This document shows positions 1,999-61,083 of a stretch of 64,000 nucleotides of DNA, in pieces; positions within the stretch are counted from its first letter, which is position 1, and every line of letters begins with the position of its first letter. Below the pieces are notes generated by a model. The model had not been told where the DNA came from and did not search any database. It saw only the letters and a program-made list of their open reading frames with translations. A program made the position numbers and the translations under genes. The DNA is taken from positions 257,449-321,448 of the forward strand of contig CP065013.1 in the NCBI GenBank assembly GCA_016700315.1. The letters are read 5' to 3'. The DNA is from Candidatus Saccharimonadota bacterium (GTDB lineage: Bacteria; Patescibacteriota; Saccharimonadia; Saccharimonadales; SZUA-47).

Positions 1999-2076
1999 CT
2001 TATCCTTTCAATATGTATAACTTTCTTACTCAATTATACCAAAACCCCCGCTAAATCCCCTCATACCCTCATATGT

Positions 2077-2112
2077 ACGACATAAAAACCACGATCGTGG
2101 TTTTTATGTCGT
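2077..2112. repeat. 36-bp perfect palindrome ACGACATAAAAACCACGA|TCGTGGTTTTTATGTCGT (copy 1 of a 5-copy hairpin element), preceded by a C-rich tract and followed by a T run
   Basis: Read directly. The two 18-nt arms are exact reverse complements. Related copies lie at 20564-20599, 20786-20803, 23776-23814 and 24475-24514. Confidence 0.9.
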
Positions 2113-2175
2113 TTTTTTCAATCATAAGTACAGAAGGCATGTACTAGTTGCCGGCTTCCCTGATACTATACACTT

Positions 2176-15655: not shown

Positions 15656-15683
15656 AAGCTATTTCATGCAAAGCCTGAAATTA

Positions 15684-16162
15684 GCTAGTCCCTAGACCCT
15701 TGTCGGTTGTCCCTAGTTATCAAGCTAGACTTTTAGAAAGCTTAGTCAGCATTTTTTGTATAATCTCTAGTTCTTCAATTATTGCGGCTATTCCAATTTT
15801 ATAAATGTCTTCAACCATTATTAGTTGGGTCTCTAGTTCTGCGGCAGAGCCCGATGCTATTCGCAAGAAATGTTTAAACTCTTTGTCATTCCTCCTCCTA
15901 TAGCCCTCTGCAATATTTGAAGGTATGCTCACGCTCGATCTCTTCATCTGAGAAGATAGTGCAAAGTCTTCTGTCTTTAGCAATTTTCTACATACTAAGT
16001 ACACTTCCTTGACTAGCGATCGTGATCTTTGCCACACTTTAAGATCATTAAAGTTTTTATCCATAAACCAAATATAGATTACAAAGTAGGGATAAACAAA
16101 AGCGCTACGCGCTATCCCGTCATAAACGGCTACGGACTAGGGACTACTAGCTAGGGTCTAGC
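15684..16162. mobile_element. Four-helix-bundle gene cassette bracketed by inverted heptamer arrays
   Basis: Left array GCTAGTCCCTAGACCCTTGTCGGTTGTCCCTAGTTA (15684-15719). Right array GGCTACGGACTAGGGACTACTAGCTAGGGTCTAGCC (16128-16162). They share reverse-complementary TAGTCCCTAG / CTAGACCC words. Confidence 0.65.
15720..16064 (-). CDS. Four-helix-bundle protein (TIGR02436 / '23S rRNA intervening-sequence protein' family)
   Basis: LKVWQRSRSLVKEVY...SQMKRSSVSIPSNIAEGY.R....F..FLRIASGSAAELETQL is the family signature. Confidence 0.88.
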   Translation of the reverse strand: MDKNFNDLKVWQRSRSLVKEVYLVCRKLLKTEDFALSSQMKRSSVSIPSNIAEGYRRRNDKEFKHFLRIASGSAAELETQLIMVEDIYKIGIAAIIEELEIIQKMLTKLSKSLA

Positions 16163-19300: not shown

Positions 19301-20173
19301 CTACATCTCTCTAGCATTTATTCTAGAAATCGCCCCAGCCCGCACAGGGTAAAGATTCGCATCGCTGTATGGGTCTACACTGATGTTTGCTTTGAGTCCG
19401 TTTTGGACAGGCGCTGGGTGAGCTTCGTCCCATTTAGCCCTAGCATAGGCATCTAATGCGCCTGCTTGGCTAGAATTTAGTTCATCTTCTATGCCCGTAA
19501 AGCGAAACATCTGGCCGTAGTTGGTGTCTATACCTTCTTTATCAGAAGCAGGTTCAATAAACTTTAGGTCGCAGCGCTTAGCAATCGCTACCGCTTCTGG
19601 GCTGCCATCTACCTTAACCACATCACCTTCTTTGTTTCGGTGGTACATCTTAGTAAACAAACTCTTAGCTAGCTCTGGTTCGCCCTGCTGTCCGGCACAT
19701 AGTTCGGCTACTCTTTCTTCAAAGGTTGGGGCTTGGGTGGTGGTAGTGGTGTTAGCGGAGTTCTTCTTGGTGGATTTAGTTGTGCCGCCAGAGCTATTGC
19801 CATTGTTGCTTCCGCCGCCGTTGCCGCCGTTATTACCACCGCCATTGTTACCACCGCCTTGTGGCTTAGTGGTTGTGGTGCGAGGTTTGGTGGTGGAGGT
19901 GCGAGGGCGGGTGGTGGAGGTGCAGACTAGTATAATACCGCCATACTCATCCGTCGTCTGCACACACCCCTCAACCCGTTTCTCTGGTTGTAGTACTTGT
20001 GGGGCTTCTTGAGCTATTGCTTGAGCAGTCGGCACACCGAGTATTGGCGTTAGCACCATACCGGCTCTCAATAACAAGCCTTTTGGTTTCTTAGATTTGC
20101 TAACTTCAGCCATAGGCATAGCACCCATCTCTGGGGATCGTGATAATTCGTTGCTTCTGTTGCTTGCACTCAT
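19301..20173 (-). CDS. Secreted protein with T/P/R and G/N low-complexity linker, unknown C-terminal domain
   Basis: Hydrophobic N-terminal segment, a TSTTRPRTSTTKPRTTTTKPQGGGNNGGGNNGGNGGGSNNG linker, and a good AAGGAG Shine-Dalgarno sequence upstream of the start. Confidence 0.65.
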   Translation of the reverse strand: MSASNRSNELSRSPEMGAMPMAEVSKSKKPKGLLLRAGMVLTPILGVPTAQAIAQEAPQVLQPEKRVEGCVQTTDEYGGIILVCTSTTRPRTSTTKPRTTTTKPQGGGNNGGGNNGGNGGGSNNGNSSGGTTKSTKKNSANTTTTTQAPTFEERVAELCAGQQGEPELAKSLFTKMYHRNKEGDVVKVDGSPEAVAIAKRCDLKFIEPASDKEGIDTNYGQMFRFTGIEDELNSSQAGALDAYARAKWDEAHPAPVQNGLKANISVDPYSDANLYPVRAGAISRINAREM

Positions 20174-20563
20174 GGCTTTCTGCTCCTTACCTGAGACTTG
20201 GGGGGGTTTCTGCTCAGATGATTAGTTAACTTAACTTTGGTCTATCGGTGCTAGCGGGCATTTTACTGTCCCTTGCTGACTGCTTGTACCGATCTTTTTT
20301 TGGCACGTTTTGAGCGTTCGGGCTCTAAGTTTCACAGTTAGTTTACTTTTTCCAGCAGCCTTGTTTACTTACTAAACAACCAGCTACCGAAATACTGACT
20401 AACCTTAACCTTAAAGCACACCCCAACTATACCACACCCCCACCCCCGTTGTCAATAGCCCGATTCTAGCAATTAGCGGGAACGGTAACCTTTACTTATG
20501 ATCTAATGCGCCCCTCGCCTTCCATTACCTCCCACCCAACACCCCTACAGCCAACCTTCATGT

Positions 20564-20599
20564 ACGACATGTTTGCCACGATCGTGGTTTTTATGTCGT
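20564..20599. repeat. Palindromic hairpin element copy 2 (left arm variant ACGACATGTTTGCCACGA)
   Basis: The right arm is identical to copy 1. The left arm has GTTTG in place of AAAAA, giving a U-U internal loop. Preceded by a C-rich tract. Confidence 0.85.
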
Positions 20600-20785
20600 C
20601 TTTTTATACTCACACCCCTGTAATTCACAAGGTAGACCAGGCTGCTTTCACGACTGTCACTACGACTAAGGCGCAGTCAAAACGCTAACCGTTATGCATT
20701 TATCCACCATTTTGCTTATGTTTTACCCAGACTTATCCATACCCCATCCCCACCCCACCAAACACCACTACACCTCCCTTCACGT

Positions 20786-20803
20786 ACGACATGTTTGCCA
20801 CGA
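20786..20803. repeat. Half-copy of the palindromic element (left arm only), preceded by C4 runs
   Basis: ACGACATGTTTGCCACGA is identical to the left arm of copy 2 and is followed by CCAAGCG instead of the right arm. Confidence 0.75.
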
Positions 20804-20852
20804 CCAAGCGTTTTCTTGTAGGCTTCTTGGCTTTCGTATATTTTTTTGTTCG

Positions 20853-23775: not shown

Positions 23776-24514
23776 GTCAACATAAAAACCACGACCAAAG
23801 GTTTTTATGTTGACTTATAGGGGTAAGACTACTAACATGCGGGTATTATGGGCAGCGGGAATGCGAGAAAGATTAAGCCGAGCAGGCTCAGACCAAGGAG
23901 CCCTAGCAAGGAGCTTACTTCTAAAATAATTGAGTCCGTCTTGAGAGCTAGCGTTTTAGCTGGTTTTACCGCTTCTGCACTACTGATACCAAACTCTCCT
24001 ATCGCCCTAGAGAAACCAGTTAAATTCTTCCTAGATAAATTGGATCAGAAAGAAAAAGAGCGCCAAATCCGCCGCGTAATTACTGAGATGAAACGGCAAA
24101 AAATCGTCAAAGGAAGCTACGAACATGGTCTTGAGATAACCAATAAAGGACGCGAGCGACTAGCAAAACTAGATTACGACAAACTCGAGATATCTGAACC
24201 ACCTTCTTGGGATAAAAAATGGCGCATAGTACTCTTCGACATTCCTTTTAACAAAGATGAGAAACGTAGAGATTTGTCAGAGAAACTAAAACTAACTGGG
24301 TTTCAGTTACTCCAGCTTAGCGTATGGGTGCATCCGTACCCCTGCCGCGATGAACTAAACAAAATATGTGAGCACTTAGGTGTTGCTAAGTATGTTACCC
24401 TCATAGAAACTGCCCACATTGACCACGAAGAATTACTAAAAAAGCGCTTCAAAAATCTCAAATTACAGTAGTGTGTCAACATAAAAACCTTTGGTCGTGG
24501 TTTTTATGTCGTAC
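23776..24514. mobile_element. Single-gene cassette bounded by 35-bp perfect terminal inverted repeats, each itself a hairpin
   Basis: Left GTCAACATAAAAACC-ACGACCAAA-GGTTTTTATGTTGAC (23776-23814). Right GTCAACATAAAAACC-TTTGGTCGT-GGTTTTTATGTCGTAC (24475-24514). The loops are reverse complements, and 23780-23814 is the exact reverse complement of 24475-24509. Confidence 0.7.
23848..24471 (+). CDS. PaaX-like regulator (winged helix plus Cas2/VapD-fold C-terminal domain)
   Basis: WDKKWRIVLFDIPFNKDEKRRDLSEKLKLTGFQLLQLSVWVHP matches the PaaX C-terminal pattern (W..W.lv.f.ipe..R..R..L...GF..l..svWv.P). A wHTH-like region lies upstream. Confidence 0.65.
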   Translation: MGSGNARKIKPSRLRPRSPSKELTSKIIESVLRASVLAGFTASALLIPNSPIALEKPVKFFLDKLDQKEKERQIRRVITEMKRQKIVKGSYEHGLEITNKGRERLAKLDYDKLEISEPPSWDKKWRIVLFDIPFNKDEKRRDLSEKLKLTGFQLLQLSVWVHPYPCRDELNKICEHLGVAKYVTLIETAHIDHEELLKKRFKNLKLQ

Positions 24515-24588
24515 ATTAGCTGTGTGAGCTAGAAGTACCCAATGGTTCTAGGGATGCTGCTTACGAAATTTATAACTTTGAAGATAGC

Positions 24589-30470: not shown

Positions 30471-31244
30471 TTAACGCAAGCTTTTTAGCATATAAAATCG
30501 CTCGACGTTTCCTTTGCTACCGGCAAGTCCAGAATCAGCTTTGTCAACTATTTTGAACAAATTTTGTACCCAGCTTTCGAAGTCGTGAATAATTTCGCGA
30601 CGAACTTTGCTATTTTTGATTACACCCCTGTTAATTTGCTCCTTGCCTGCTTCAAACTGAGGCTTGAGCATAGCTATGATTAATGTTTTGTTATTAACGA
30701 ATAAAGAGATGTGAGGTAGTATTTTTCGCATCGAAATAAAGCTCACGTCAATCACTACTATGTCTGGTACTTCGGAGAGTACTACTCTTCGTTCCTCGTT
30801 CTTCGTTCCTCGTTCTATTTGGCTACTTTGTAGCCAAATCTCACGAATATCAGTCTTTTCGTGCAGTTCAATTTTGGGATTTCCTAACAGTGTTGGGTGA
30901 AGTTGATCCGTGCCAACATCAACTGCAACAACTTTACTAGCACCATTTTGCAGTGCAAAATCCGTGAAGCCTCCCGTGCTACTGCCCACGTCCAAAACGA
31001 CTTTATTTGTAAAATCTAGCCCTAGCTCTCTCGCTACAGAAGCCAGCTTCTCGCCTGCTCGTGATACGTACTTTCCTGCTGTAGCTGAAACTACAATTTT
31101 GTCACTAGCTGAAACCTCGAAAGCCGGTTTTGTAATAACATTACCGTTAACTCGCACCGTGCCGCGCTTAATCAAATCCTCGGCCCTAGACCGCGACTGA
31201 GTCTTGCCTGACAAAAATAAAACTTGATCAAGCCGCCGCTTCAT
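30471..31244 (-). CDS. tlyA: TlyA-family 16S/23S rRNA (cytidine-2'-O)-methyltransferase
   Basis: N-terminal S4 domain (RLDQVLFLSGKTQSRSRAEDLIKRGTVRVNG) and FtsJ-type SAM motif VLDVGSSTGGFTD. Confidence 0.88.
   Translation of the reverse strand: MKRRLDQVLFLSGKTQSRSRAEDLIKRGTVRVNGNVITKPAFEVSASDKIVVSATAGKYVSRAGEKLASVARELGLDFTNKVVLDVGSSTGGFTDFALQNGASKVVAVDVGTDQLHPTLLGNPKIELHEKTDIREIWLQSSQIERGTKNEERRVVLSEVPDIVVIDVSFISMRKILPHISLFVNNKTLIIAMLKPQFEAGKEQINRGVIKNSKVRREIIHDFESWVQNLFKIVDKADSGLAGSKGNVERFYMLKSLR
30787..30839. repeat. Intragenic module inside tlyA: heptamer array (CTTCGTT CCTCGTT)x2 plus adjacent 9-bp-stem hairpin ATTTGGCTA-CTTTG-TAGCCAAAT
   Basis: Read directly. Translated in frame as WLQSSQIERGTKNEERRVV. 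Confidence 0.9.
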
Positions 31245-34880: not shown

Positions 34881-34910
34881 TCGTCACTCCTTTCTTCTGC
34901 GAAGAAACGA

Positions 34911-34988
34911 GTTAGTAGTTAGTAGTTGGTAGTTGGTAGTTAGTAGCCTCATGAGCTACCATCTACCATCTACCTTCTACCTTCTACC
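34911..34988 (-). promoter_or_regulatory. Long imperfect hairpin in the rpsF leader built from two inverted heptamer arrays
   Basis: GTTAGTAGTTAGTAGTTGGTAGTTGGTAGTTAGTAGC (34911-47), a 7-nt loop, then GCTACCATCTACCATCTACCTTCTACCTTCTACC (34955-88). Hand pairing gives runs of 5-7 bp separated by mismatches roughly once per heptamer unit. Confidence 0.6.
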
Positions 34989-35114: not shown

Positions 35115-37331
35115 TTAGATTTCGCGTTCAAAGTCAGTTAGCGGCTCATCTTCAGGTGAAACCACGGCAGACTCATCGCCGTCAGTAGTTGCCCCGCCAA
35201 AAACATCATCGAGCGAGCTAACCAACACTTCGCGCGGCTTACTGCCATCGGCATGGCCAACAATGCCAGCTTCTTCCATCTCATCGATTAGCCTCGAGGC
35301 ACGACCATAGCCTATACGCAGTCTACGCTGTAGGAGTGAGGTTGATGCCTTACGATTTTCTATGACTACTCGCACGGCATCGCGGAACATATCATCATCA
35401 CTATCACTGTTGCCACCGCCGGCTGGCTCAGGAACTATGCCGCCTTTACCATTAAGAACAACTGGCATACTCACCACTTCGTCATCATACTGAGGTGGTC
35501 GCTGCATACGCAGAAAATCTGTCACTTTGTTGATTTCATCACCCATGATCAAAGCACCCTGAACGCGGATTGGTTTGGGCATGTCAGCTGTTACATAAAG
35601 CATATCACCAGTACCCAAAAGTTTTTCAGCCCCAACTTGGTCGAGTATTATTCTACTTTCAACCTGCCCGGCAACTGTAAAGGCAATGCGAGCCGGTACG
35701 TTAGCTTTAATTAGTCCAGTTATAACATCTACACGCGGACTCTGTGTTGCCAAAACTAAGTGAATACCAGCAGCGCGTGCTTTTTGGGCAATTCGGACAA
35801 TTAAAGCCTCAACTTCACGGCCAGCAAGCATCATGAGATCAGCCATTTCGTCTACAACGATCACGATGTAAGGCATACCAGCTTCGGCCTGCCTATCATT
35901 GTACTCAGCAATTGAGCGCGCGCCGTGCTCTTTAAACTGACGAAGACGCCTCTCCATCTCCGCAACTGCCCACTTGAGAGCGCTAATACACTTCTCGGGC
36001 TCAGTAATTACAGGTGTTAAAAGGTGTGGAATGTCGTTATAGGATGTTAGCTCAACCTGTTTTGGATCGACCAGAATAAGTTTGAGATCAGACGGAGAAT
36101 TACGATACAGCAAACTAACCAGAAGAGTATTAATCATGACCGACTTACCAGAACCAGTCTGACCAGCTATCAAAAGATGAGGCATGCGATCGAGAGAACC
36201 AACAATAGGTACCCCTGCAATATCCTTGCCAACCGCTAAACCGAGCGGCTGTTGGTTACTTTTCCAAGCGTCGCTATCGATTACGCCAGCCAGACGAACT
36301 GTCGCTGGTTTGACGTTTGGCACTTCTATGCCAACAGCTCGCTTGCCAGGAATAGGTGCTTCCATACGAATGCTGCGTGCCGCCAAATCAAGAGCTAGGT
36401 TATCATCAAGCGCAGTAATCTTTGACAGCTTAATACCTTGAGGTGGTTTGAGCGTAAACTGTGTTACACGTGGACCAACATTCACTTCCTCCATTTCTAC
36501 ATCAATACTAAAGTTACTAAGTGTGCTCTTGATAATTTCGGCGTTAGTCTCATAGTCACCAGCGTCGGCCTTGTCCTGCTTTTGATTAAGTAGATTCAAG
36601 CTTGGGAATTGCCAGTTTGGATCGCTTTTCTCTGTTAGAGCTTCGTGGTCTTCTTGCGGGGTTAGTGCAGCAGCGGCATTCTTGACCGGATTTTTTGAAA
36701 CTGAATTTCGCTCAGCTTGGCTATGATGCTCTACAGGCACACCTTCGTTTAATTTGAAGTGAGGCTCGCGTGTTTTTAGCTCATCTAAATCTGTGTCACC
36801 TTCTTGACGACGTAGGCTAAGTAATTTATCGAACAATCCACGGACCGAAACATCAAAAGTCCAACAAAATGCTAGAAACGTTAGGACAAAAAACACAATG
36901 CTCGTAGGTACCTTGTCTAAGAGTGCCAATAGTGCGTTGCCTATAGTTCTACCGACAGCCCCGCCGTAGCCACCCGCCCAAGGCAGTTCAGACGAGTCAC
37001 GGGTAGCAAACCCTGTGTGCAACCATGCGCTGGCAACGATTACAAAACTTGCCATGCTAGCAATGTTTCTGAAAGGTACAACTTTTTCTTCATGTTTGAA
37101 CTTGTGCACCGCCCAGTAAAAACACGCTAAGGGAGCAAAGTAGCCCGCTAGGCCAAAAGCATCGTAAACCCAACCAAAAAGTTTAACCGGCAATGACCCG
37201 CCAGTACCAAAGCCTCCTAGTAGCAGAAGGAGCCCCAAAACTACCAAAAAAACGCCGCGCATAACACGCCAAAACATACTTGGCTCTTTTGGAGCTTGTT
37301 TCTTGCTTGTTCGTTTTTTTCTTTTTGCCAT
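35115..37331 (-). CDS. ftsK: DNA translocase FtsK/SpoIIIE
   Basis: N-terminal TM helices, Walker A GQTGSGKSVMIN, VVDEMADLMM, and the C-terminal gamma winged helix LLQRRLRIGYGRASRLIDEMEEAGIVG. Confidence 0.93.
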   Translation of the reverse strand: MAKRKKRTSKKQAPKEPSMFWRVMRGVFLVVLGLLLLLGGFGTGGSLPVKLFGWVYDAFGLAGYFAPLACFYWAVHKFKHEEKVVPFRNIASMASFVIVASAWLHTGFATRDSSELPWAGGYGGAVGRTIGNALLALLDKVPTSIVFFVLTFLAFCWTFDVSVRGLFDKLLSLRRQEGDTDLDELKTREPHFKLNEGVPVEHHSQAERNSVSKNPVKNAAAALTPQEDHEALTEKSDPNWQFPSLNLLNQKQDKADAGDYETNAEIIKSTLSNFSIDVEMEEVNVGPRVTQFTLKPPQGIKLSKITALDDNLALDLAARSIRMEAPIPGKRAVGIEVPNVKPATVRLAGVIDSDAWKSNQQPLGLAVGKDIAGVPIVGSLDRMPHLLIAGQTGSGKSVMINTLLVSLLYRNSPSDLKLILVDPKQVELTSYNDIPHLLTPVITEPEKCISALKWAVAEMERRLRQFKEHGARSIAEYNDRQAEAGMPYIVIVVDEMADLMMLAGREVEALIVRIAQKARAAGIHLVLATQSPRVDVITGLIKANVPARIAFTVAGQVESRIILDQVGAEKLLGTGDMLYVTADMPKPIRVQGALIMGDEINKVTDFLRMQRPPQYDDEVVSMPVVLNGKGGIVPEPAGGGNSDSDDDMFRDAVRVVIENRKASTSLLQRRLRIGYGRASRLIDEMEEAGIVGHADGSKPREVLVSSLDDVFGGATTDGDESAVVSPEDEPLTDFEREI

Positions 37332-37344
37332 AGTACTTCACTTA

Positions 37345-37425
37345 CGCTTCAGAGGACAACTACGTTTTCCTCTGGTCGCTCCGGGCAAAAAGCGTCGTTT
37401 TTGCTCGGGCTACTCTTTTCCTTTT
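37345..37425 (-). repeat. Two-hairpin intergenic element, copy B (between rnj and ftsK)
   Basis: AGAGGACAAC-TAC-GTTTTCCTCT and GCAAAAA-GCGTCG-TTTTTGC followed by GGCTACTCTTTTCC. Alignable with copy A at 40735-40826. Confidence 0.75.
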
Positions 37426-37518
37426 TTAATACTGTTACAGTATACCGCTTATCTTAAATTTCAGATATACCGAATGTTGTAATAATAACAAAATTCTTAT
37501 GCTTTGTCAACTGATTGA

Positions 37519-39633
37519 TCAGTCTACTCGGGCGTCTTGGCCTAGCAGGCTGGCCCGCATTTTGGCGAAGCGCTCCTGCTGTTCGGCGGCAATTTGTTCA
37601 GGCGTTTTTGGTTCCGGCTTTGACTCGCCTACCGCATTTTCTGCTACTAGTTGCCCTGCACCGACCGTGCCATTTGCGTTCTTGACGCTACTGTTGCCAA
37701 CCACGTTGACTACCGGTATGACGATCGGGCTGCGCTGAGTCTGCTCGTACAGAAAATGTGTAACGTAATCCTTGAGCTCGGCTTTGAAACGATCTAGATC
37801 AACTCTCTTGTAGCGCTGCTGAACCGCCCGGCGAAGTTCTATTCTAAACAAATTCATCAACTCTTCCTGGCCGCGCATGTAGATGAAGCCGCGGCTAATA
37901 ATATCTGGGCTAGTAAGCAGCTGCCCCGTTTTCTTATCAATTGTTAAGATGACCGCTACAAGTCCTTCCTCGCTCAATACTAGGCGATCTTTGACCACCA
38001 CACTGTTTACGATTGCACCTGTTTGATCAACCAAAACTGTACCAACTGGCACTTCTCCGATTACCTCCATCTTGTCTCCGTTGATTGCTACAACTTGACC
38101 ATTTTCGGCATTGAGACAGTTGCTTCTCGGTACACCTAGCTCGACTGCAAGATCAATATGGCTTTTCTTGCTGCGGATTGAACCGTAGATTGGCAAGAAA
38201 AACTTAGGACGAAGCATCTGGATCATCTCGGCGTACTCGTCTCGACTTGCATGACCCGAAACATGTAGCGGTCCAACCTTATCTAACTCATGAGTCATGT
38301 GCTGAAAAACGTGAACACCCATACGCACCATGTTGTCGACCATACCGCCGATAAGTGCGTCGTTTCCGGTCTCTGGGATTGGCGTACTTGAAAGCACAAC
38401 CGTGTCTTGCTCTTTAAGCTTAATATGCTTGTGAGCGCCGCTAGCCATACGCTGCAGCGCCGAATTTGGTTCGCCTTGACTACCCGTACAAACCACTACT
38501 ACTTCGTGATCTTTCATGGTTGGGACGGCACTGATCGGCACGATTGTGCCTTTCTGAATCCTGACAAAACCGTGACGAATCGCCATTTCAAGTGTGCTAA
38601 TTAGACTGCGACCATCAAGTGCGATCTTTTTGTTGTGGTGAATCGCAGCGTTGATGATCATTTGAATACGGTTGATATTGGTAGAAAACATCGACATGAA
38701 ACAGCGTCCTGGCGCATTCTCCATAATGTCGATGAAGCTCTGCTCGATTGTCGATTCGCTAGGGGTGCGGCCCAATCGCTCAGTTGTTGTACTCTCGCTC
38801 ATAAGTAGCAGTACACCTTCGCGGCCAAGCTCGGTTAGCCTTTCCATGTCAGAGCGTTCGTGATCGAGCGGATTTGGGTCAAAACGGAAGTCGCCGGTGT
38901 TTATCACACGTCCAACCGGAGTATCTAGCACTACTACAGTACTGCCTGGAATAGAGTGAGTGATACGCACTAACTCGACAAAAAAGACTCCAACTTTTAG
39001 TTTTTCGTGGGTGTTCTCGTTCATGGGTACTACTTCGAGCTTGAAGCCTTCTGGCATAGGCAGGCCAAAGTTCTCGAAAATTTCCTGCACGCGCCCACAA
39101 GTAAATCGGCTACCATAAACTGGCGCTGGATACTTAGGAATGATGTGCGGCAAAGCCCCAATGTGATCAAGGTGCCCGTGAGTTATAACGTAGCCTTTTA
39201 TCTTGTGCTTGATAGTATCTAGATAGCTTGTATCGCAGATGCCATAGTTGATACCAGGCAGGTCAACCCCAAGGTCGTTACCCGCGTCAATGATAACCGC
39301 ATCGTTTTGGTACTCAACAAGCATCATGTTTTTGGAGCCACCACCGTCCATACCACCCAAGCCGATTACCTTCAGTCTAGGACTGTCATCTATGAAATTT
39401 GCTCGGCGTGGCTGGTTGCCATTTTGGGCCGGTGTGTCGTACAACTTTGCGATTCGGTCAGCATCTTCGTGAGCACGTTTTTGGGCTCTGATAGCTTCGC
39501 CGCGGCTTGCCGCACGAGCCTGAGGCGTCGTCCGAGGTCTAGCCTTAGCAGGCGCGTTCTGCCCCTGTTTTGGTGCTGAGTTTCTCGGGCGATTACCGCC
39601 ACCAGAACGGTTTTGTTTAAAATTGTTATTCAT
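37519..39633 (-). CDS. rnj: Ribonuclease J with basic N-terminal extension and extended C-terminus
   Basis: Metallo-beta-lactamase motif ITHGHLDHIGALP and beta-CASP region. About 90 aa of R/N/Q/G-rich N-terminal low complexity. Confidence 0.88.
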   Translation of the reverse strand: MNNNFKQNRSGGGNRPRNSAPKQGQNAPAKARPRTTPQARAASRGEAIRAQKRAHEDADRIAKLYDTPAQNGNQPRRANFIDDSPRLKVIGLGGMDGGGSKNMMLVEYQNDAVIIDAGNDLGVDLPGINYGICDTSYLDTIKHKIKGYVITHGHLDHIGALPHIIPKYPAPVYGSRFTCGRVQEIFENFGLPMPEGFKLEVVPMNENTHEKLKVGVFFVELVRITHSIPGSTVVVLDTPVGRVINTGDFRFDPNPLDHERSDMERLTELGREGVLLLMSESTTTERLGRTPSESTIEQSFIDIMENAPGRCFMSMFSTNINRIQMIINAAIHHNKKIALDGRSLISTLEMAIRHGFVRIQKGTIVPISAVPTMKDHEVVVVCTGSQGEPNSALQRMASGAHKHIKLKEQDTVVLSSTPIPETGNDALIGGMVDNMVRMGVHVFQHMTHELDKVGPLHVSGHASRDEYAEMIQMLRPKFFLPIYGSIRSKKSHIDLAVELGVPRSNCLNAENGQVVAINGDKMEVIGEVPVGTVLVDQTGAIVNSVVVKDRLVLSEEGLVAVILTIDKKTGQLLTSPDIISRGFIYMRGQEELMNLFRIELRRAVQQRYKRVDLDRFKAELKDYVTHFLYEQTQRSPIVIPVVNVVGNSSVKNANGTVGAGQLVAENAVGESKPEPKTPEQIAAEQQERFAKMRASLLGQDARVD

Positions 39634-40658: not shown

Positions 40659-40686
40659 CTGTACGCCCCTTCTATACTCTATAAAA

Positions 40687-40826
40687 TTACTTTTCTACAG
40701 CTTTCATTGACAATTTGCTGCGGCCTTTGTCGCCTTCGGCTTTTGAGGACAACCTACGGTTTTCCTCAACGCGCAGTGCAAAAAAATGTGATTTTTTGCT
40801 CTGGCTACTCTTTCCCCTTAAATACA
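40687..40826 (-). repeat. 48-bp duplicate of the pnp 3' end (40687-40734) plus ~92-nt two-hairpin element, copy A (40735-40826)
   Basis: TTACTTTTCTACAGCTTTCATTGACAATTTGCTGCGGCCTTTGTCGCC matches pnp 40827-40874 with 3 mismatches in 48. Element hairpins are GAGGACAACC-TAC-GGTTTTCCTC and GCAAAAAAA-TGTGA-TTTTTTGC. Confidence 0.88.
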
Positions 40827-42980
40827 TTACTTCTCTACAGCTTTCATTGACAATTTGCTTCGGCCTTTGTCGTCGATACCGACTAGTTTAACATCTACAA
40901 TGTCGCCAACTTTGACAACATCGCTCGGTTTCTCGACACGCTCGTTTTTCATCTCGCTGACATGTACTAAACCCTCTTGACCCTTCATAAATTCTACGAA
41001 TGCGCCGAAATCTAAGACGCTAACAACACGCGCTCCACGGTAAACTTTGCCAACTTCTGGCTCGGCTGTAAGGCTTTTGATCCACTCAAGCGCTTTTTCG
41101 ATCGCCTCAGTATTAACTGCAGCGACTGTAATCAAACCAGTGTCTTTGATGTCGATCTCAGCGCCTGTTTCTTTGGTGATTGCGTTGATTGTTTCACCAC
41201 CCTTACCAATAACAGCACCGATTTTCTCTGGGTTGATCATAATTTTCTCAATCCTTGGAGCGTGTGGGCTTAGACTAGCCCGAGGTCTGCCTAGGGTGCT
41301 TAACATGTGCCGTAAAATCTCAGCACGGCCTTCCTTGCCCTGCTCTAAAGCTTTTCGCAGAACCTCAACAGGCAAGCCGTGAACTTTCATATCCATCTGC
41401 AGAGCTGTGATACCCTTGTTGGTGCCTGCCGTTTTGAAGTCCATGTCACCTGCGAAATCTTCAGCGTCAGCAATATCACTCATGACGTAGGCATTGTCGC
41501 CGTCCATCATCAGCCCCATCGCAATACCAGACACTGGAGCTTTGAGGGGCACACCTGCATCCATAAGCGCCAGACAGCTGGAACAAGTCGCAGCCATGCT
41601 GGTACTACCGTTTTGGCTCATAATTTCTGTAACCGATCGAATAGCGTACGGAAAGTCTTCTTCGCCTGGTAGAACTGCAGTTAAGGCTCTTTCAGCGAGG
41701 TAGCCATGACCAATTTCACGACGTCCCGGACTACCAAGTCGGCGGACTTCGCCAACAGTGTATCCTGGAGCGTTATAGTGGTGCATATAACGGCGTTCAC
41801 CGTCACTTACTTCCATTGTGTCGACGATTTGGGCGTAGCTAAGCGGTGCGAGCGTTACGATGTTCATACCTTGAGTCACGCCTCGAGTAAACAAGCTCGA
41901 ACCGTGCGCTCTTGGCAAGATACCAACTTCGCTCGACAGCTGCCTAATCTCAGTTAGCTTACGGCCGTCAGGGCGAGTTTGGCTTTTTACAATACCATCA
42001 CGTACGTCTTTGTGAAGCGCCATAGTAAAGGCTTCATCGTATTCATCCCGCAGATCAGCGTAGTTCTCGCCGACTTTTTCAGCCATTTGCCCGTGAAAAT
42101 CCCAGCGAAGCTCGTTGATCATTTCGTTGCGTTCAGGGTAAGGACGGTGGAGTTTTTCGCCCAGCTTTCCTTCTACCCATGCATCAACTGCGCCCTGGAT
42201 CTCGTCATTTGGCTTGACTAGCTCGTACTCCAGCGGCTCTACACCAACTTTGGCGACTAGTTCTTTTTGAATCTTAAAGGCTGGAGCCATTTCGTTTAGA
42301 GCCCACTGCATGGCCTCTAAGACTTTTTCTTCGCTGACTTCATTAGCGCCCGCTTCTACCATCATAATGCCGCCTTCGCGGGCCGCAACTACTAGATCCA
42401 GCTCGCTAGCTTTCATCTCTGCATAGCTCATAAATGCCTTGAACTGGCCACTGTCATCTAGGCCGACTCGAAGTCCGGCAACTGGGCCGTCGAACGGTGC
42501 ACCTGTGAGCATAAATGCTGTACTCATGGCGATCATTGCCACCATGTCTGGCCTAAAGCTTGGGTCGCTGCTCAAAACACTAGCGACACCTTGTACTTCT
42601 TGTCGGTAGCCCTTGGGCCAAAGAGGTCGGATTGGTCGATCAATCAGCCGTCCGATCAAAATCGCCTCTTCACTTGGGCGACCTTCGCGCTTAATAAAGC
42701 GACTACCGCTGATTTTGCCTGTAGCGTAAAATTTTTCTTCGTAGTCGATGCTTAGCGGGAAATAGTCCATGCCGCTGATAGGTCGATTGCCAACCATGGC
42801 GGTCCCTAGCACAACCGTGTCGCCGTAGCTTACGAGAACACTTGAGGTACTCCTAAAACCAACGCGGTTGATTTCTAACTTTAGCTCTCGGCCGCAAAGC
42901 TCGGTGCTAACACTTATTATTTCTTTACCCTGGGGATTTATTGTCATTTTTTCCTTTTCCTTTTCGAAGTTTGGGCGCAA
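40827..42980 (-). CDS. pnp: Polyribonucleotide nucleotidyltransferase (PNPase)
   Basis: Two RNase PH domains plus KH and S1 domains (GKVYRGARVVSVLDFGAFVEF). The true start may be Met12 (42947). Confidence 0.94.
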   Translation of the reverse strand: MRPNFEKEKEKMTINPQGKEIISVSTELCGRELKLEINRVGFRSTSSVLVSYGDTVVLGTAMVGNRPISGMDYFPLSIDYEEKFYATGKISGSRFIKREGRPSEEAILIGRLIDRPIRPLWPKGYRQEVQGVASVLSSDPSFRPDMVAMIAMSTAFMLTGAPFDGPVAGLRVGLDDSGQFKAFMSYAEMKASELDLVVAAREGGIMMVEAGANEVSEEKVLEAMQWALNEMAPAFKIQKELVAKVGVEPLEYELVKPNDEIQGAVDAWVEGKLGEKLHRPYPERNEMINELRWDFHGQMAEKVGENYADLRDEYDEAFTMALHKDVRDGIVKSQTRPDGRKLTEIRQLSSEVGILPRAHGSSLFTRGVTQGMNIVTLAPLSYAQIVDTMEVSDGERRYMHHYNAPGYTVGEVRRLGSPGRREIGHGYLAERALTAVLPGEEDFPYAIRSVTEIMSQNGSTSMAATCSSCLALMDAGVPLKAPVSGIAMGLMMDGDNAYVMSDIADAEDFAGDMDFKTAGTNKGITALQMDMKVHGLPVEVLRKALEQGKEGRAEILRHMLSTLGRPRASLSPHAPRIEKIMINPEKIGAVIGKGGETINAITKETGAEIDIKDTGLITVAAVNTEAIEKALEWIKSLTAEPEVGKVYRGARVVSVLDFGAFVEFMKGQEGLVHVSEMKNERVEKPSDVVKVGDIVDVKLVGIDDKGRSKLSMKAVEK

Positions 42981-43103: not shown

Positions 43104-43370
43104 TTAGCGGCGTAGGCCGAGCTTCTTAATAAGGCTTAGGTATTTTGCACTGTCACGATCAGCAATGTATTTGAGCAGTTTTTTGCGCTGTCCAACCATT
43201 TGGAGTAGACCGCGTCGGGCTGCAAAATCTTTTTTGTTGATCTTCATGTGGTCAGTCAGTTCGTTGATACGAGCTGTCAGCAAACCAACTTGAGTAGAAG
43301 CCGAACCAGTATCAGTTTTGCTCACGCCCAAATCAGCCACAATTGCCTGTTTTTTCTCTAGAGTCATCAT
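43104..43370 (-). CDS. rpsO: 30S ribosomal protein S15
   Basis: TGSASTQVGLLTARINELTDHMKINKKDFAARRGLLQMVGQRKKLLKYI. Confidence 0.93.
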   Translation of the reverse strand: MMTLEKKQAIVADLGVSKTDTGSASTQVGLLTARINELTDHMKINKKDFAARRGLLQMVGQRKKLLKYIADRDSAKYLSLIKKLGLRR

Positions 43371-43675: not shown

Positions 43676-44383
43676 CTAGATATCTTCAATAGTTTTAGCA
43701 TCTTTTACTTCATAGCCTCCGATTTTCGTACGTCGAAGCTCAAGACAGTAAGCACCCGTACCAAGTTCTTTGCCAATATCTTCCGCAAGGGTACGAATGT
43801 ATGTGCCGCTGGAGACATGGGCACGTACTTTTATTTCTGGCCAGACGTACTCAAGCAGCTCCAGGCTATAAATCGTTACTTGGCGTGGTTTCAGTTCGAC
43901 TTTTTTGCCCGCCCTAGCAAGCTCATAAGCCTTTTTGCCGTTAACCTTGATAGCCGAATACTGCGGCGGCACCTGCGTGATCTCACCAACAAACTTAGCT
44001 AGCGCCTTTTGTACCTCTTCAGTAGATGGTAGATGGTAGTTAGTAGTTGGAGTGGCTTCTCTTCGTTCATCGTTCAGCATCCCTCGTTCTGTGATTTCCC
44101 CTTCCGGATCACCGGTCGTCGAGACAGCCCCAAGTCGAAAAGTCGCCTCATAGACCTTATCTTGCTTCATAAACTCGTCCTGACGCTTCGTGGCACTGCC
44201 AATCAGGATTATCAGCAGCCCCGTAGCAAAAGGATCGAGCGTGCCACTGTGGCCTACTTTTAGTTTCTGTTTACCGTTTACTGAGGACTGAGGACTATTT
44301 TTTCGTAAATCAGAGCGGATTTTGGCCACCACATCAAAACTAGTCCACCCCGATGGTTTATCTATCAGAATTACTTGATCCAT
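43676..44383 (-). CDS. truB: tRNA pseudouridine(55) synthase
   Basis: KVGHSGTLDPFATGLLIILIG catalytic Asp motif, and QVPPQYSAIKVNGKKAYELAR. Confidence 0.92.
   Translation of the reverse strand: MDQVILIDKPSGWTSFDVVAKIRSDLRKNSPQSSVNGKQKLKVGHSGTLDPFATGLLIILIGSATKRQDEFMKQDKVYEATFRLGAVSTTGDPEGEITERGMLNDERREATPTTNYHLPSTEEVQKALAKFVGEITQVPPQYSAIKVNGKKAYELARAGKKVELKPRQVTIYSLELLEYVWPEIKVRAHVSSGTYIRTLAEDIGKELGTGAYCLELRRTKIGGYEVKDAKTIEDI
44022..44088. repeat. Intragenic heptamer arrays inside truB: GTAGATG GTAGATG GTAGTTA GTAGTTG (44022-49) and CTTCGTT CATCGTT CAGCATC CCTCGTT (44061-88)
   Basis: Read directly. Translated in frame as ERGMLNDERREATPTTNYHLPST. The E. coli TruB sequence as I recall it is about 14 residues shorter here. 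Confidence 0.85.
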
Positions 44384-58374: not shown

Positions 58375-61083
58375 TCATAGCTCCCCCCATGTTTTACCGG
58401 TGGATATGTCTACACGCAGTTTTACGCCCAGCTCTGGATAAATATTTTCCATAGTCTGCTTCATCATTTTGCCAACCCGCTCAGCATCAGCTTCGGCACA
58501 TTCAACCAAAATACTGTCATGTATCTGCAATATCTGTCTCGGCTCTTCCTCGTTCCTCGTTCCTCGTTCCTCGTTCCAGTGTCTAAATTGGCTTTCTAAT
58601 TTAGACATTGCCATCTTGGTTATATCAGCAGCGCCTCCCTGAATTGGCATATTGATTGCGGCCCGCAAAGCTGCCTCACGTACGACAAAATTGCTGCTCC
58701 GAGCATCCGGCGTTGGGCGGCGACGTCCGAGCGGCGTCTCCACAAAACCTTTGTTTTTGGCTTGGTCACGAAAACGCTCCATCATTGCCTTCAGTTTGGG
58801 GCGCACCTCGAAGTATTTATCGATAAACTTTTTGGAATCGGCGTAGCTCATGCCCGTTCCTTCACTGAGTCCGTGAACACCTTGCCCATACAAAATACCG
58901 AAATTAACAGCTTTGGCCGCGTAGCGCATCTCTTTGCTGACTTCTTCGGGCTTGACACCTTGAACCAAAGCGGCCGTCTCGATATGAATGTCTCGATCAG
59001 AGTTAAACGACTCAATCATTGCTTGATCACCGCTCAGTGCCGCGGCAATGCGAAGCTCAAACTGACTGTAGTCGGCACTCACCAATACATTGCCAGGCTC
59101 GGCGATAAAGCCAGTTCTGATCTCTCGACCAATTTCGGTGCGGATAGGAATGTTCTGCAAGTTGGGATCGTTGCTACTAAGCCGGCCAGTTGCTGCGACC
59201 GTCAGCGCCAGTGTTGTATGTATACGATTGTTCTCATCTACCTGCTCTGGCAGCGTATCTACGTAGGTACTTTTGAGCTTTGTGTACTCACGATATTTCT
59301 CGATATCGTTGATGATCGGGTGAAGGTCTTTTAGTTTAGCGAGTACGTTACTGGCTGTGCTGAAGTGGCCAGCCTTCCCTTTCTTGCTTGCGATTGTAGG
59401 CAAGTTTAGCTTCACAAACAAAATATCACTCAGCTGGCTAGGACTTGAGATATTAAACTCTTGGTCGGCATAGCCATAAATTGTTTGTTCAATGTCACTA
59501 ATTTGATCTGTTAACTTGTCAGATAAAACCTTGAAAAAGCTTGGCTCAATCTTCACCCCAGTACGCTCAATTCGAGCTAAGACTGGTATCACTGGCCAGT
59601 CCACTTGCTCGGCCATTTTGATCAAACTTGTAACCTCGCTCATTTGCTCACCCTGTCGCTCAGCAAGCCCCCGGATCACAGCGCAGATTTCTGGTAGCTT
59701 AATTAGCGCTTCATCATCATCAATATTGTCGAGCTCACCAGCGTAGTTTAGATCCTCGCTCGCAAGCGCCGTAAGCGAAAAATCTCGCCTCAGAGAATTA
59801 ACAATAAATGCGCCAACTTGTGTGTCGTGGCTTACCTGCGGCAAGTTTTCTATCCCAAGCTCGAGTAAAATTTGAAAGATATTCTTTAAATCGTGCCCGG
59901 TAACGGCTTTGCCGTTTAGTAGTTGGTCGATGGTAGATGGTAGATGGGAATTAGCTACTGATTTTCTTAAATCAAAAATATAGCAATTTGTTTTGTCAGA
60001 TAGCGCCAAAACAGTTGGCTCGTGACCGTGCTTACCACTGCTGCGAGCAAAAATTACTACATCCCCTTCAAGCTGCAGCGATGACACTGCGGAGCTCTCC
60101 TGAACGTAGACAGGTGTCGGGGTTTTGAGATCGAGGATTGCCGCACTTATGTTTGACGAAAGGTCATTTGTCGATTCTGCAACTGCTACTTTGGACGAAT
60201 CACTACGCATTCCTTGTGGCAAGTTGCGCAGCAGGCTCCTGAACTCTAGGCGCTTTAGTATGCTTGCCAGCTCATTCGTATCTAGCTTATTTATGTCCAT
60301 TTGTTCAAGGTCCAGCTCGATTGGCGCATCTGCGTAAAGTCGAGCAATTTCTTTACTCATGTAGGCCGAATCTCGCCCCGCTTCAAGCTTTTTCTGTACT
60401 GCGCCCTTGGTGAGAGCAACATTCTCGTAAACACCATCGAGAGTTTTGTATTGTTTAAGTAGTTCAACCGCTGTTTTTTCACCAATGCCAGGAACACCGG
60501 GAATGTTGTCCGACGAATCGCCTTTTAGAGCTTTTAAGTCCAGAAATTGCTCAGGCTCGAGGCCGTATTTATCACGAAATTGTTCTGGCCGATAAAGCTC
60601 GATATTTGTTAGTCCTTTTTTGAGCGCATAGACATGGGTGTTCTCGCTAATGCACTGCAGTGCATCAAGATCACTGGTGATTAGCATTGTCTCTAACCCG
60701 GCGGCATCAGCTTTTTTAGCCAGGCCACACATAATATCGTCTGCCTCGTAATCATCGAGTTCGTATAGCGGCCAATTTAGTGCTCTTAGCAGCTCGTGAA
60801 GAATAGGAATTTGTACATAAAAGTCTGGCGGTGCCGGCTTTCGTCCTGCCTTGTAGTCTGGGTAGACGGCTAGTCGTTTTCGGATATTGGTTTTTGGTTT
60901 ATCCCAAGCTACACAAACATAATCTGGTTTGAGCCGCTTAATCAGCTCCAGCGCCATTGCTGCGAAGCCATAAACTCCCCCTGTTGGCGTCCCGTCGGCG
61001 GTCGAAAGCCCCGGCATCGCGTAATAGCCACGGTAAAAGACTGACTTTCCGTCGATAATCGCAAGTTTTTTTCTACTCTCCAT
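58375..61083 (-). CDS. polA: DNA polymerase I
   Basis: 5'-nuclease domain, DYSQFELRIAA (motif A), KAVNFGILYGQG (motif B) and QIHDSILVE (motif C). Confidence 0.94.
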   Translation of the reverse strand: MESRKKLAIIDGKSVFYRGYYAMPGLSTADGTPTGGVYGFAAMALELIKRLKPDYVCVAWDKPKTNIRKRLAVYPDYKAGRKPAPPDFYVQIPILHELLRALNWPLYELDDYEADDIMCGLAKKADAAGLETMLITSDLDALQCISENTHVYALKKGLTNIELYRPEQFRDKYGLEPEQFLDLKALKGDSSDNIPGVPGIGEKTAVELLKQYKTLDGVYENVALTKGAVQKKLEAGRDSAYMSKEIARLYADAPIELDLEQMDINKLDTNELASILKRLEFRSLLRNLPQGMRSDSSKVAVAESTNDLSSNISAAILDLKTPTPVYVQESSAVSSLQLEGDVVIFARSSGKHGHEPTVLALSDKTNCYIFDLRKSVANSHLPSTIDQLLNGKAVTGHDLKNIFQILLELGIENLPQVSHDTQVGAFIVNSLRRDFSLTALASEDLNYAGELDNIDDDEALIKLPEICAVIRGLAERQGEQMSEVTSLIKMAEQVDWPVIPVLARIERTGVKIEPSFFKVLSDKLTDQISDIEQTIYGYADQEFNISSPSQLSDILFVKLNLPTIASKKGKAGHFSTASNVLAKLKDLHPIINDIEKYREYTKLKSTYVDTLPEQVDENNRIHTTLALTVAATGRLSSNDPNLQNIPIRTEIGREIRTGFIAEPGNVLVSADYSQFELRIAAALSGDQAMIESFNSDRDIHIETAALVQGVKPEEVSKEMRYAAKAVNFGILYGQGVHGLSEGTGMSYADSKKFIDKYFEVRPKLKAMMERFRDQAKNKGFVETPLGRRRPTPDARSSNFVVREAALRAAINMPIQGGAADITKMAMSKLESQFRHWNEERGTRNEEEPRQILQIHDSILVECAEADAERVGKMMKQTMENIYPELGVKLRVDISTGKTWGEL
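58548..58607. repeat. Intragenic module inside polA: perfect (CCTCGTT)x4 plus adjacent 10-bp-stem hairpin TGTCTAAATT-GGCTTTCT-AATTTAGACA
   Basis: Read directly. Translated in frame as KLESQFRHWNEERGTRNEEEPRQ, just upstream of motif C. Confidence 0.92.
59917..59951. repeat. Second intragenic heptamer array in polA: TAGTAGT TGGTCGA TGGTAGA TGGTAGA TGGGAAT
   Basis: Read directly. Same unit family as the truB and rpsF-leader arrays. Translated as ANSHLPSTIDQLL. Confidence 0.85.

Follow-up and report, generated by a model that had tools for sequence, protein, structure and literature searches.

The window analysed here, a stretch of 64,000 nucleotides from the genome of a Candidatus Saccharimonadota bacterium, carries two copies of a short two-hairpin element. 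Copy A follows pnp, and copy B lies in the leader of ftsK, ending 16 nt before the start codon of that gene (Table 1). The window genes that flank the two copies, as delimited by heuristic open reading frame (ORF) calls, are all on the minus strand; both copies are located 3′ of a ribonuclease gene, pnp or rnj, and are therefore also located 5′ of the next gene. Our results show that copies A and B are homologous members of one large family and that the element is a structured RNA on the gene (minus) strand. A promoter-like site upstream of copy B, to judge from its sequence, is probably the ftsK promoter, which would transcribe the element. It is kept as TTGACA...TAAAAT in L153, one of the Patescibacteria genome and metagenome contigs (labelled L001 and so on) that were fetched for comparison.

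Read on the gene strand, the core of each copy consists of a single-stranded purine tract (block 1) and two hairpins (P1 and P2), which in both copies fold far better than shuffled sequences (z -2.8 to -5.3). The family consensus for block 1 is AGGGAAAAGAGCAG. The P1 stems of both window copies are A/T runs, and the P2 of copy B shows compensatory differences from copy A, from the L153 copy and from the family consensus. The insert that contains copy A has in addition a 5′ linker, GUAUUU, and a 3′ tail, AAGCCGAAGG, with a GCC-GAAG-GC mini-hairpin, and copy A is identical in the contigs of the same species (L001-L006). An earlier inspection of the DNA letters, called here the sequence-only reading, had described the element from the plus strand as a hairpin GAGGA(C)AAC(C)-TAC-(G)GTTTTCCTC, in which an internal mismatch is conserved and copy A has one C-G pair more, a hairpin GCAAAAA-loop-TTTTTGC with differing loops, and a tail GGCTACTCTTT(C/T)CC. 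All of these features are found in both copies where that reading placed them, and its tail is, in copy B, block 1 seen from the opposite strand.

A covariance model (CM), R1, was built on 70 family members and used to search the window with filters off. It finds exactly two copies, the further matches (E>0.03) being the reverse strands of copies A and B or noise, and so the three copies counted in the sequence-only reading come down to two. The shared tail pattern has exact matches in the window only at 37408 and 40803. A candidate third copy at 19706 was rejected: it is a tail with two mismatches within a coding ORF, without the hairpins or the rest of the element.

Table 1. Coordinates of the element copies, their parts and the surrounding genes (window positions unless a contig is named).
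Feature	Coordinates	Strand	Remarks
Copy B core (block 1 + P1 + P2)	37348..37425	-	rnj-ftsK spacer; R1 61 bits, E 9e-14
Copy B block 1	37411..37422	-	single-stranded purine tract AGGAAAAGAGUA; near-invariant columns 3-18 of alignment A3
Copy B P1	37378..37410	-	GCCCGAGCAAAAA-CGACGC-UUUUUGCCCGGAGC; from fold; has the family's conserved A.C 1x1 mismatch and bulge
Copy B P2	37350..37374	-	CAGAGGA-A-AAC GUA GUU-G-UCCUCUG; from fold; conserved A.G mismatch
Copy A core	40741..40820	-	between pnp and the 62-aa ORF; R1 83 bits, E 2e-19
Copy A full insert, 93 nt	40733..40825	-	between direct repeats; bounds from flanking repeat
Upstream direct repeat	40826..40872	-	true pnp 3′ end including stop codon; 96% identical to partner
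Downstream direct repeat	40686..40732	-	duplicated, non-functional pnp 3′ end, resembling a target-site duplication; single-copy in L153
rpsO	43104-43370	-	first in transcription order at the locus
pnp	40827-42980	-	after rpsO; copy A next
62-aa ORF (orf62), 58-aa ORF, UDG-family gene		-	in this order after copy A, then rnj
rnj	37519-39633	-	followed by the promoter-like site, then copy B
Promoter-like site TTGACA-17-TATTAT (with TG)	37482-37510	-	upstream of copy B; 11/12 consensus match
ftsK	35115-37331	-	start ATG at 37331; copy B in its 5′ leader
Type-2 intron copies	L098 4841-4889; L126 7460-7508	-	

Beyond the window the element is widespread. A scan of a genome collection with the block 1 pattern returned 21 stretches, and the seven of them that hold the whole element are all from Saccharibacteria/Patescibacteria metagenome-assembled genomes. 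The window too belongs to Saccharibacteria: over an alignment that covers 98% of its length, its PNPase has 100% identity with a protein from a "Candidatus Saccharibacteria" contig of 988 kb. A metagenome scan with a pattern anchored on P2 gave at least 120 DNA stretches, from loci without taxonomic assignment, and R1 has at least 146 matches at E<1e-3 in the fetched Patescibacteria genome and metagenome loci. Copies can be clustered: some loci hold 2-5 of them, with up to four or five per 5-10 kb. In two such cases, L039 (1230-3629, four copies) and L145 (152-10082, five copies), the copies belong to single rRNA operons, where they occupy the spacers and sites within the 23S gene; the 16S-23S interval of L145 is about 9 kb. 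The sole match to the pattern in IMG/VR (L152), which might have pointed to a viral origin, is a chance match because the CM does not confirm it.

The element measures about 80 nt, or up to about 125 nt with extras, and its consensus on the gene strand is AGGGAAAAGAGCAGCC-[P1]-GGCGCGAU-GAGAAAAACC-GUA-GGUUUGUCUC-AU. Across the family, block 1 is a conserved single-stranded purine stretch, AGGGAAAAGAG(C/U)AG, P1 is a hairpin of variable sequence with a conserved A.C or A.A mismatch and a bulge, and P2 is near-invariant, (AU)GAGA-A-AAACC GUA GGUUU-G-UCUC(AU), with an A.G mismatch. A small GNRA-like hairpin at the 3′ end is frequent. Some promoter-proximal copies have an upstream pyrimidine strand that pairs with block 1 (P0); this pairing is enriched, yet we do not count it as a constant part of the motif, since only about 10-20% of copies have it and neither window copy is among them. 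Three variants occur: in one, P1 contains an additional hairpin; a second is minimal and lacks P1; and in the third, "type 2", which is richer in G+C, another hairpin precedes UAGGGAAAGGAGAG and a longer P2.

The sequence-only reading had taken the preservation of the stems, with divergent loops, as the sign of a structured RNA, and the larger alignment bears this out with compensatory changes beyond those of shuffled controls. Cells assigned to pairs are paired in 95.6% of cases, as against 82.2% in shuffles and 32-47% when the partners are slid out of register, and there are 186 double-compensated cells as against 48.9 in shuffles; the observed values were reached in 0 of 500 shuffles. Double changes affect 12 of the 20 base pairs. 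Covariation across the family is found in P1 pairs 19-48, 22-44 and 28-40 and their neighbours: at columns 19-48, 35 sequences have C-G, 21 have G-C and 10 have A-U, and the three apical P1 pairs show about 30 double changes each. A chance likeness of A/T-rich low-complexity hairpins, for which the A/T runs in the P1 stems of the window copies would speak, is already refuted by CM E-values of 1e-13 to 1e-19, by many homologues with G+C-rich P1 stems and by the covariation controls. The covariance search that the sequence-only reading proposed has thus turned up many more members as well as covariation, the two things whose lack it had named as grounds for giving the idea up.

That reading had followed the plus strand. 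Naive orientation counts based on ORFs were too noisy, and we used tRNA adjacency and greedy ORF calls instead. The copies next to tRNA genes are sense relative to the tRNA in 28 cases and antisense in none, and for copies within operons greedy ORF calls place both neighbours on the same strand in 11 cases and both on the opposite strand in 2. The ratio of G-U to A-C appositions on the gene strand is about 36:13. From this ratio and the co-orientation with tRNA genes it follows that the RNA strand is the minus strand of the window. A protein-coding mini-gene was also considered and was rejected, because P1 varies freely in sequence and length while remaining paired.

The contexts of the family were compiled for 103 strong copies, from loci that had been chosen for carrying the element and not from whole genomes. 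About 28-33 of these copies end 1-14 nt (median about 5) before a tRNA gene on the same strand, with at least 13 isoacceptor types represented, and many of the copies in tRNA leaders are 20-45 nt downstream of strong TTGACA/TGnTAnAAT promoters. For about 35, the distance to the start codon that follows is 11-35 nt and that from the stop codon upstream is 0-25 nt. The genes downstream of 20 intercistronic copies (Pfam confirms ten of these genes) include those for the ribosomal proteins S10, L4 and L2 (two copies each), L22, S17, L14 and L11, and those for EF-Ts (two copies), GroEL, HrcA, SSB and IleRS. In rRNA operons the element is found 11-15 nt before 5S rRNA (L055, L073, L087 and L127), 3-11 nt before the 5′ end of 23S (L145 and L039), in the tRNA-Ile/tRNA-Ala interval of the spacer and within 23S genes; no copy was seen upstream of 16S where the full operon was available (L073). 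Type-2 copies make up the final ~50 nt of a group I intron insertion of ~560-590 nt in 23S; the P9 hairpin is 5′ of them, and 8 nt separate their end from the 3′ splice site. In L045, L076, L109 and L117, type 2 is antisense and immediately follows a tRNA or an ORF, a position in which its hairpin would resemble a terminator. Members of the family have sense orientation and occupy non-coding but transcribed parts of the units with the highest expression; most lie immediately 5′ of a start codon or of the end of a mature RNA.

The sequence-only reading had left open whether the presence of both copies after ribonuclease genes has a meaning. We consider it coincidental because family members precede tRNAs, 5S, 23S, ribosomal-protein genes, groEL, tsf and ssb, and because copy A is missing at the same pnp site in L153; pnp and rnj are untypical neighbours for the family.

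The element does not correspond to a known RNA in the sources that we searched. None of the 4227 models of Rfam 15 matches it at gathering or E-value thresholds. On the window, the gathering threshold yields one tRNA only, and the two copies searched at E<=10 give only noise (SNORA72, atoC and FTX). The self-cleaving ribozymes hammerhead, twister, twister-sister, pistol, hatchet and HDV, and also glmS, give no Rfam match even at E<=10. Canonical members in 30 loci have no Rfam match at the elements themselves, and the matches nearby are limited to tRNA, rRNA and group I intron. As our literature search also found no description of the motif, the family is apparently undescribed in Rfam 15 and in the literature searched. 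Identity with a group I intron was rejected, there being no intron core near the window copies; in L098 the core (5321-5082) is separate from the type-2 module, which lies ~190 nt 3′ of it. Short resemblances in permuted order were noticed between the element and Saccharibacteria 5S rRNA (L073, L090, L127 and L055), namely GGGAAAAUAGCAC versus GGGAAAAGAGCAG and GGCGAUGAGGAAAUACC versus GCGAUGAGAAAAACC. The derivation of the element from 5S by circular permutation was nevertheless rejected: the nhmmer enrichment is weak, and a covariance model of permuted 5S matches no element on the sense strand. Two other candidate roles also failed. A Shine-Dalgarno mimic is not supported, as 16S has the usual 3′ end, CCUCCUUUCU, and its pairing with block 1 of type 1 is poor. 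An outward promoter in P2 (TTGAGA-17/18-(T/C)ATAAG) would have a spacing to the tRNA +1 position that is inconsistent, and far better promoters are found upstream.

The family shows the behaviour of an insertion. Of the 103 copies, 10 are flanked by direct repeats (13-47 nt) of local sequence, as against 1 of 509 mismatched-flank controls. These repeats usually span a stop codon or a Shine-Dalgarno sequence and start codon, and their linkers to the core vary from 0 to 22 nt; the insert ends that they define show no terminal inverted repeats. Copy A is a recent lineage-specific insertion, on either side of which the last 47 nt of pnp are duplicated. In L153, whose PNPase is 84% identical, the gene order truB...rpsO-pnp-orf62-UDG-rnj-ftsK is the same and the pnp site is empty, with the start of orf62 14 nt past the pnp stop codon. 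Copy B is an older copy that has been kept in the ftsK leader downstream of a conserved promoter. It has an orthologue in the rnj-ftsK spacer of L153 (7088-7166, 80.7 bits), behind the same promoter, in which the fold is kept, the P1 sequence is wholly different and the changes in P2 are compensatory; the ftsK leader of L154, a relative at 78% identity, has no element. At comparable sites the identity of the element is 70-97% (78-97% in nine of ten pairs) and that of the upstream flanks of 30-60 nt is 27-80%, and the core is therefore either constrained or homogenised among copies.

Public gene calls contain a 46-aa ORF (38 aa in L003) that runs through copy A (L001 2832-2972, corresponding to window 40686-40829, minus strand). 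Its start ATG overlaps the pnp stop codon (TAATG), and its stop is that of the duplicated pnp end. What makes the ORF possible is only that two of the three frames of the conserved core are without stop codons; most likely the call is spurious and the insertion created it.

Presence and absence can also be compared at one site in 23S, which is filled in L039 and L056 and empty, with a short loop, in L090 and L073. The filled site is a hairpin, GGAGCC...GGUGACGG, which we take to be helix 25 from the E. coli sequence, and the ends of the insert (CCUGGAU/AUCCAGG) extend its helix. Inserts in helix 25 or helix 45 of 23S, excised by RNase III, are the intervening sequences (IVSs) of Salmonella, Leptospira, Campylobacter and others. 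The rRNA genes of bacteria that belong to the candidate phyla radiation (CPR) contain abundant "short, unclassified" inserts for which no motif was described; in Saccharibacteria 64 of 66 short rRNA inserts are of at most 250 bp and have no intron or endonuclease, and some are at classical RNase III IVS sites (PMC11270868). Our element resembles both kinds of insert in being short (~80-125 nt), free of ORFs and hairpin-forming, in being present or absent at the same 23S site among relatives, one such site being the tip of a helix-25-like hairpin, and in its supposed horizontal spread. A variable insert at the tip of a 23S helix is the placement of an IVS; members of the family are so placed, and the window copies are not. 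Unlike these inserts, the family has a conserved sequence core beyond a stem, and most of its copies are outside rRNA genes, in tRNA leaders, spacers, intercistronic sites and the 3′ ends of introns.

Our results are consistent with a reading that we favour tentatively and whose chances we put at even or somewhat below, namely that the element is a mobile, cis-acting recognition module that acts at the RNA level for a processing activity in precursor transcripts. A cellular endonuclease, or self-cleavage, would cut at or near the element, with P2 and the conserved unpaired nucleotides as the recognition surface. Through such cutting an insertion would do no harm, and the RNA downstream of it could acquire a defined 5′ end. 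Several features suggest this reading: the copies consistently lie just 5′ of start codons, splice sites and the ends of mature RNAs, they keep to untranslated or precursor parts of the units with the highest expression, and they include IVS-type positions in 23S; the conserved unpaired nucleotides point the same way. With self-cleaving ribozymes (hammerhead, twister, twister-sister, pistol, hatchet and HDV-like) the element shares a similar size (50-100 nt), a conserved core with a variable peripheral stem, and scattered multiple copies that are orientation-specific and tied to mobile DNA; unlike them, it matches none of their Rfam models and is known here from sequence alone.

Several points weigh against a processing module. 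What suggests such a role is position alone, and it is taken from loci selected for carrying the element. The near-invariance of P2 is partly an artefact of retrieval, as the metagenome pattern was anchored on it, although compensatory P2 changes are also seen in the set anchored on block 1 and in the window copies (GAGG/CCUC versus GAGA/UCUC, and the extra C-G pair). The element is dispensable at each site: L090 and L056 are without it before 5S, L154 is without it in the ftsK leader, and L153 at the pnp site. This dispensability fits a tolerated selfish insert as well as it fits an accessory function. L090 has a high-scoring antisense copy within 23S, in a private insert of 113 nt. RNase P RNA is retained in CPR bacteria (PMC8172020), and the 5′ ends of tRNAs therefore need no other activity. 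Moreover, the antisense strand is terminator-like, and selection against it could be the source of the sense bias.

The main rival, which we consider unlikely, is that the element is a selfish repeat at the DNA level, of the REP/REPIN or PATE kind or similar to miniature inverted-repeat transposable elements (MITEs). The hairpins would then be the sites at which a mobilising enzyme, an HUH/Y1 transposase for example, recognises single-stranded DNA; transcription would be incidental and the RNA functionless, and copies would survive where they are harmless, in leaders, spacers, IVS sites and junctions restored by duplication. The presence/absence polymorphism, the flanking duplications and the many copies, each dispensable at its site, fit this explanation, as do the toleration of an antisense copy within 23S and the imperfect hairpins with conserved mismatches, which resemble IS200/IS605 or REP ends, with GUAG in the P2 loop; selection against a terminator-like antisense strand could supply the orientation bias. 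It is less easily reconciled with the lack of terminal inverted repeats or conserved termini, with linkers of 0-22 nt, and with duplications of 13-47 nt, whereas movement of the IS200/605 and RAYT types makes none. The toleration of G-U on one strand only points to RNA rather than DNA pairing, 28:0 sense copies and a tight spacing of 1-14 nt to tRNAs are not expected from tolerance alone, and old copies are 78-97% conserved in nine of ten site comparisons despite diverging flanks. No transposase turned up beside any copy, though no search aimed at transposases was made. A MITE in particular was rejected, as the inserts are without terminal inverted repeats, the duplications have no fixed length and the linkers vary.

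The REP/BIME/REPIN, RUP, BOX, Correia/NEMIS and ERIC repeats, the Rickettsia palindromic elements and the PATEs resemble the family in being multi-copy, non-coding and hairpin-forming, in occupying transcribed intergenic sites, in a capacity to affect or tolerate mRNA processing and in their presence/absence polymorphism. The family differs from them in having no terminal inverted repeats or fixed short duplication, its target duplications being long and variable (13-47 nt), in its sequence conservation over very broad lineages with covariation of the RNA type and strand-specific G-U, and in its strong preference for sites just 5′ of tRNA and rRNA genes.

How the element moves may be considered separately from what it does. 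Terminal inverted repeats are lacking, linkers vary, and the duplications are long and of variable length, all of which speaks against a classical transposase. In L011 (4000-4090, minus strand) a degenerate tRNA-Gly-like fragment, for which ARAGORN makes no call, lies between the element and a good tRNA-Gly(GCC); from its sequence it looks as if the element had arrived with part of a donor tRNA. One might speculate that the duplications, the linkers and this fragment fit template-switch or retro-type events better than a classical transposase. The element could be a new kind of mobile module at the RNA level in the ultra-small CPR bacteria, either a processing cassette or a retro-element similar to a short interspersed element (SINE), a proposal that we regard as distinctly improbable and more so than the selfish repeat. 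As a cassette it would be a small self-cleaving or nuclease-recruiting unit, of a kind not known before, that sets the 5′ ends of tRNAs, 5S, 23S and ribosomal-protein messages. As a SINE-like element it would spread by RNA-templated events (template switching at the 5′ ends of abundant RNAs). Such spread would account for why copies are found only in sense orientation, favour the most abundant transcripts and lie directly 5′ of mature RNA ends, for linkers that vary and target duplications that are long and of variable length, and for the pseudo-tRNA fragment carried along in L011.

In another reading the element would act on transcription elongation, as a leader that binds RNA polymerase or brings about antitermination and shields highly expressed stable-RNA and ribosomal-protein transcripts from premature (Rho-dependent) termination. 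Two-hairpin RNAs near the start of tRNA transcripts, 20-45 nt past strong promoters, and copies in rRNA spacers before 23S and 5S and within ribosomal-protein operons are what such a role would predict, and high sequence conservation is expected of a site that contacts conserved machinery. The models for it would be the put sites of phage HK022 and the boxB-boxA leaders of rrn operons, with which the element shares two stem-loops in leaders or spacers of highly expressed operons. However, tRNA genes are too short to need protection, some copies are a few nt from the end of the unit that they should protect and others are within 23S or at intron ends, individual sites are dispensable, and no copy precedes 16S in the full operon of L073. 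Unlike the put and boxB-boxA elements, to which it has no sequence relation, the family includes copies within 23S and at intron ends and copies that adjoin the 5′ end of the downstream RNA, and none has been seen before 16S. We judge this role to be very unlikely.

Less probable still, to the point of being hard to credit, is a trans-acting small RNA (sRNA) or protein sponge that is freed from the leaders by RNase P or other cuts, the amount of which would report the rate of stable-RNA transcription. A promoter-proximal copy with an RNase P site 1-14 nt further on would yield a discrete RNA of ~100 nt, and many copies with a conserved single-stranded purine block would suit a sponge or an sRNA. 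Nevertheless, most copies are without a promoter or terminator of their own, those in operons, introns and 23S are hard to square with a dedicated sRNA gene, and there is no known target or partner.

An intrinsic terminator, attenuator or riboswitch on the gene strand is effectively excluded. A terminator was one of the options of the sequence-only reading. Stable hairpins do lie after pnp and rnj, and a terminator scan flags a site at 37380-37409, but only on the plus strand, antisense to the genes. On the sense strand the sequence after P1 is CCGGAGCG and that after P2 is GAAGCG or AAAGCC, without a U-tract at either hairpin, and the genes and tRNAs within a few nt downstream must be expressed. 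For a riboswitch the downstream genes are too diverse for one ligand, and no alternative expression platform is seen.

Some further observations concern the window as such. In an assembly of the same species (GCA_041909835.1; L001 6140-6189 compared with window 37331-37519) a convergent AstE/AspA-family gene lies 8 nt after rnj in place of copy B and ftsK, so that synteny breaks exactly at the position of copy B. A second, unrelated family of palindromic intergenic repeats has 3-4 copies in the window (2068-2118, 20555-20605, 20777-20814 and 24473-24518) with the pattern ATGTACGACAT..CCACGATCGTGG..ATGTCGT followed by T-runs; these could be terminators or another small repeat family. Low-complexity stretches such as AGTAGTTGGTAGTTGGTAG, CTCGTTCCTCGTTC and GTCCCTAGACCC are repeated at several places (34907-34946, 44021-44046 and 59918-59943; 30782-30816, 44056-44090 and 58543-58577; 64-104 and 15676-15716).

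The genomes of Saccharibacteria and other Patescibacteria are small (~1 Mb) and tightly packed, and a recurring, conserved insert of 80 nt is unexpected because they have so little non-coding DNA. One motif now joins the "unclassified short insertions" of CPR rRNA genes with tRNA leaders and operon junctions. A covariance model of the family would improve annotation and do away with spurious short ORFs (the 46-aa call across copy A is one), and it would account for the length heterogeneity of 23S in these bacteria and for the difficulty of assembling and aligning their rRNA genes. The family lends itself to the study of how small elements move, here with target duplications of unusual length, and it offers a handle on the processing of stable RNAs and ribosomal-protein messages in Patescibacteria.

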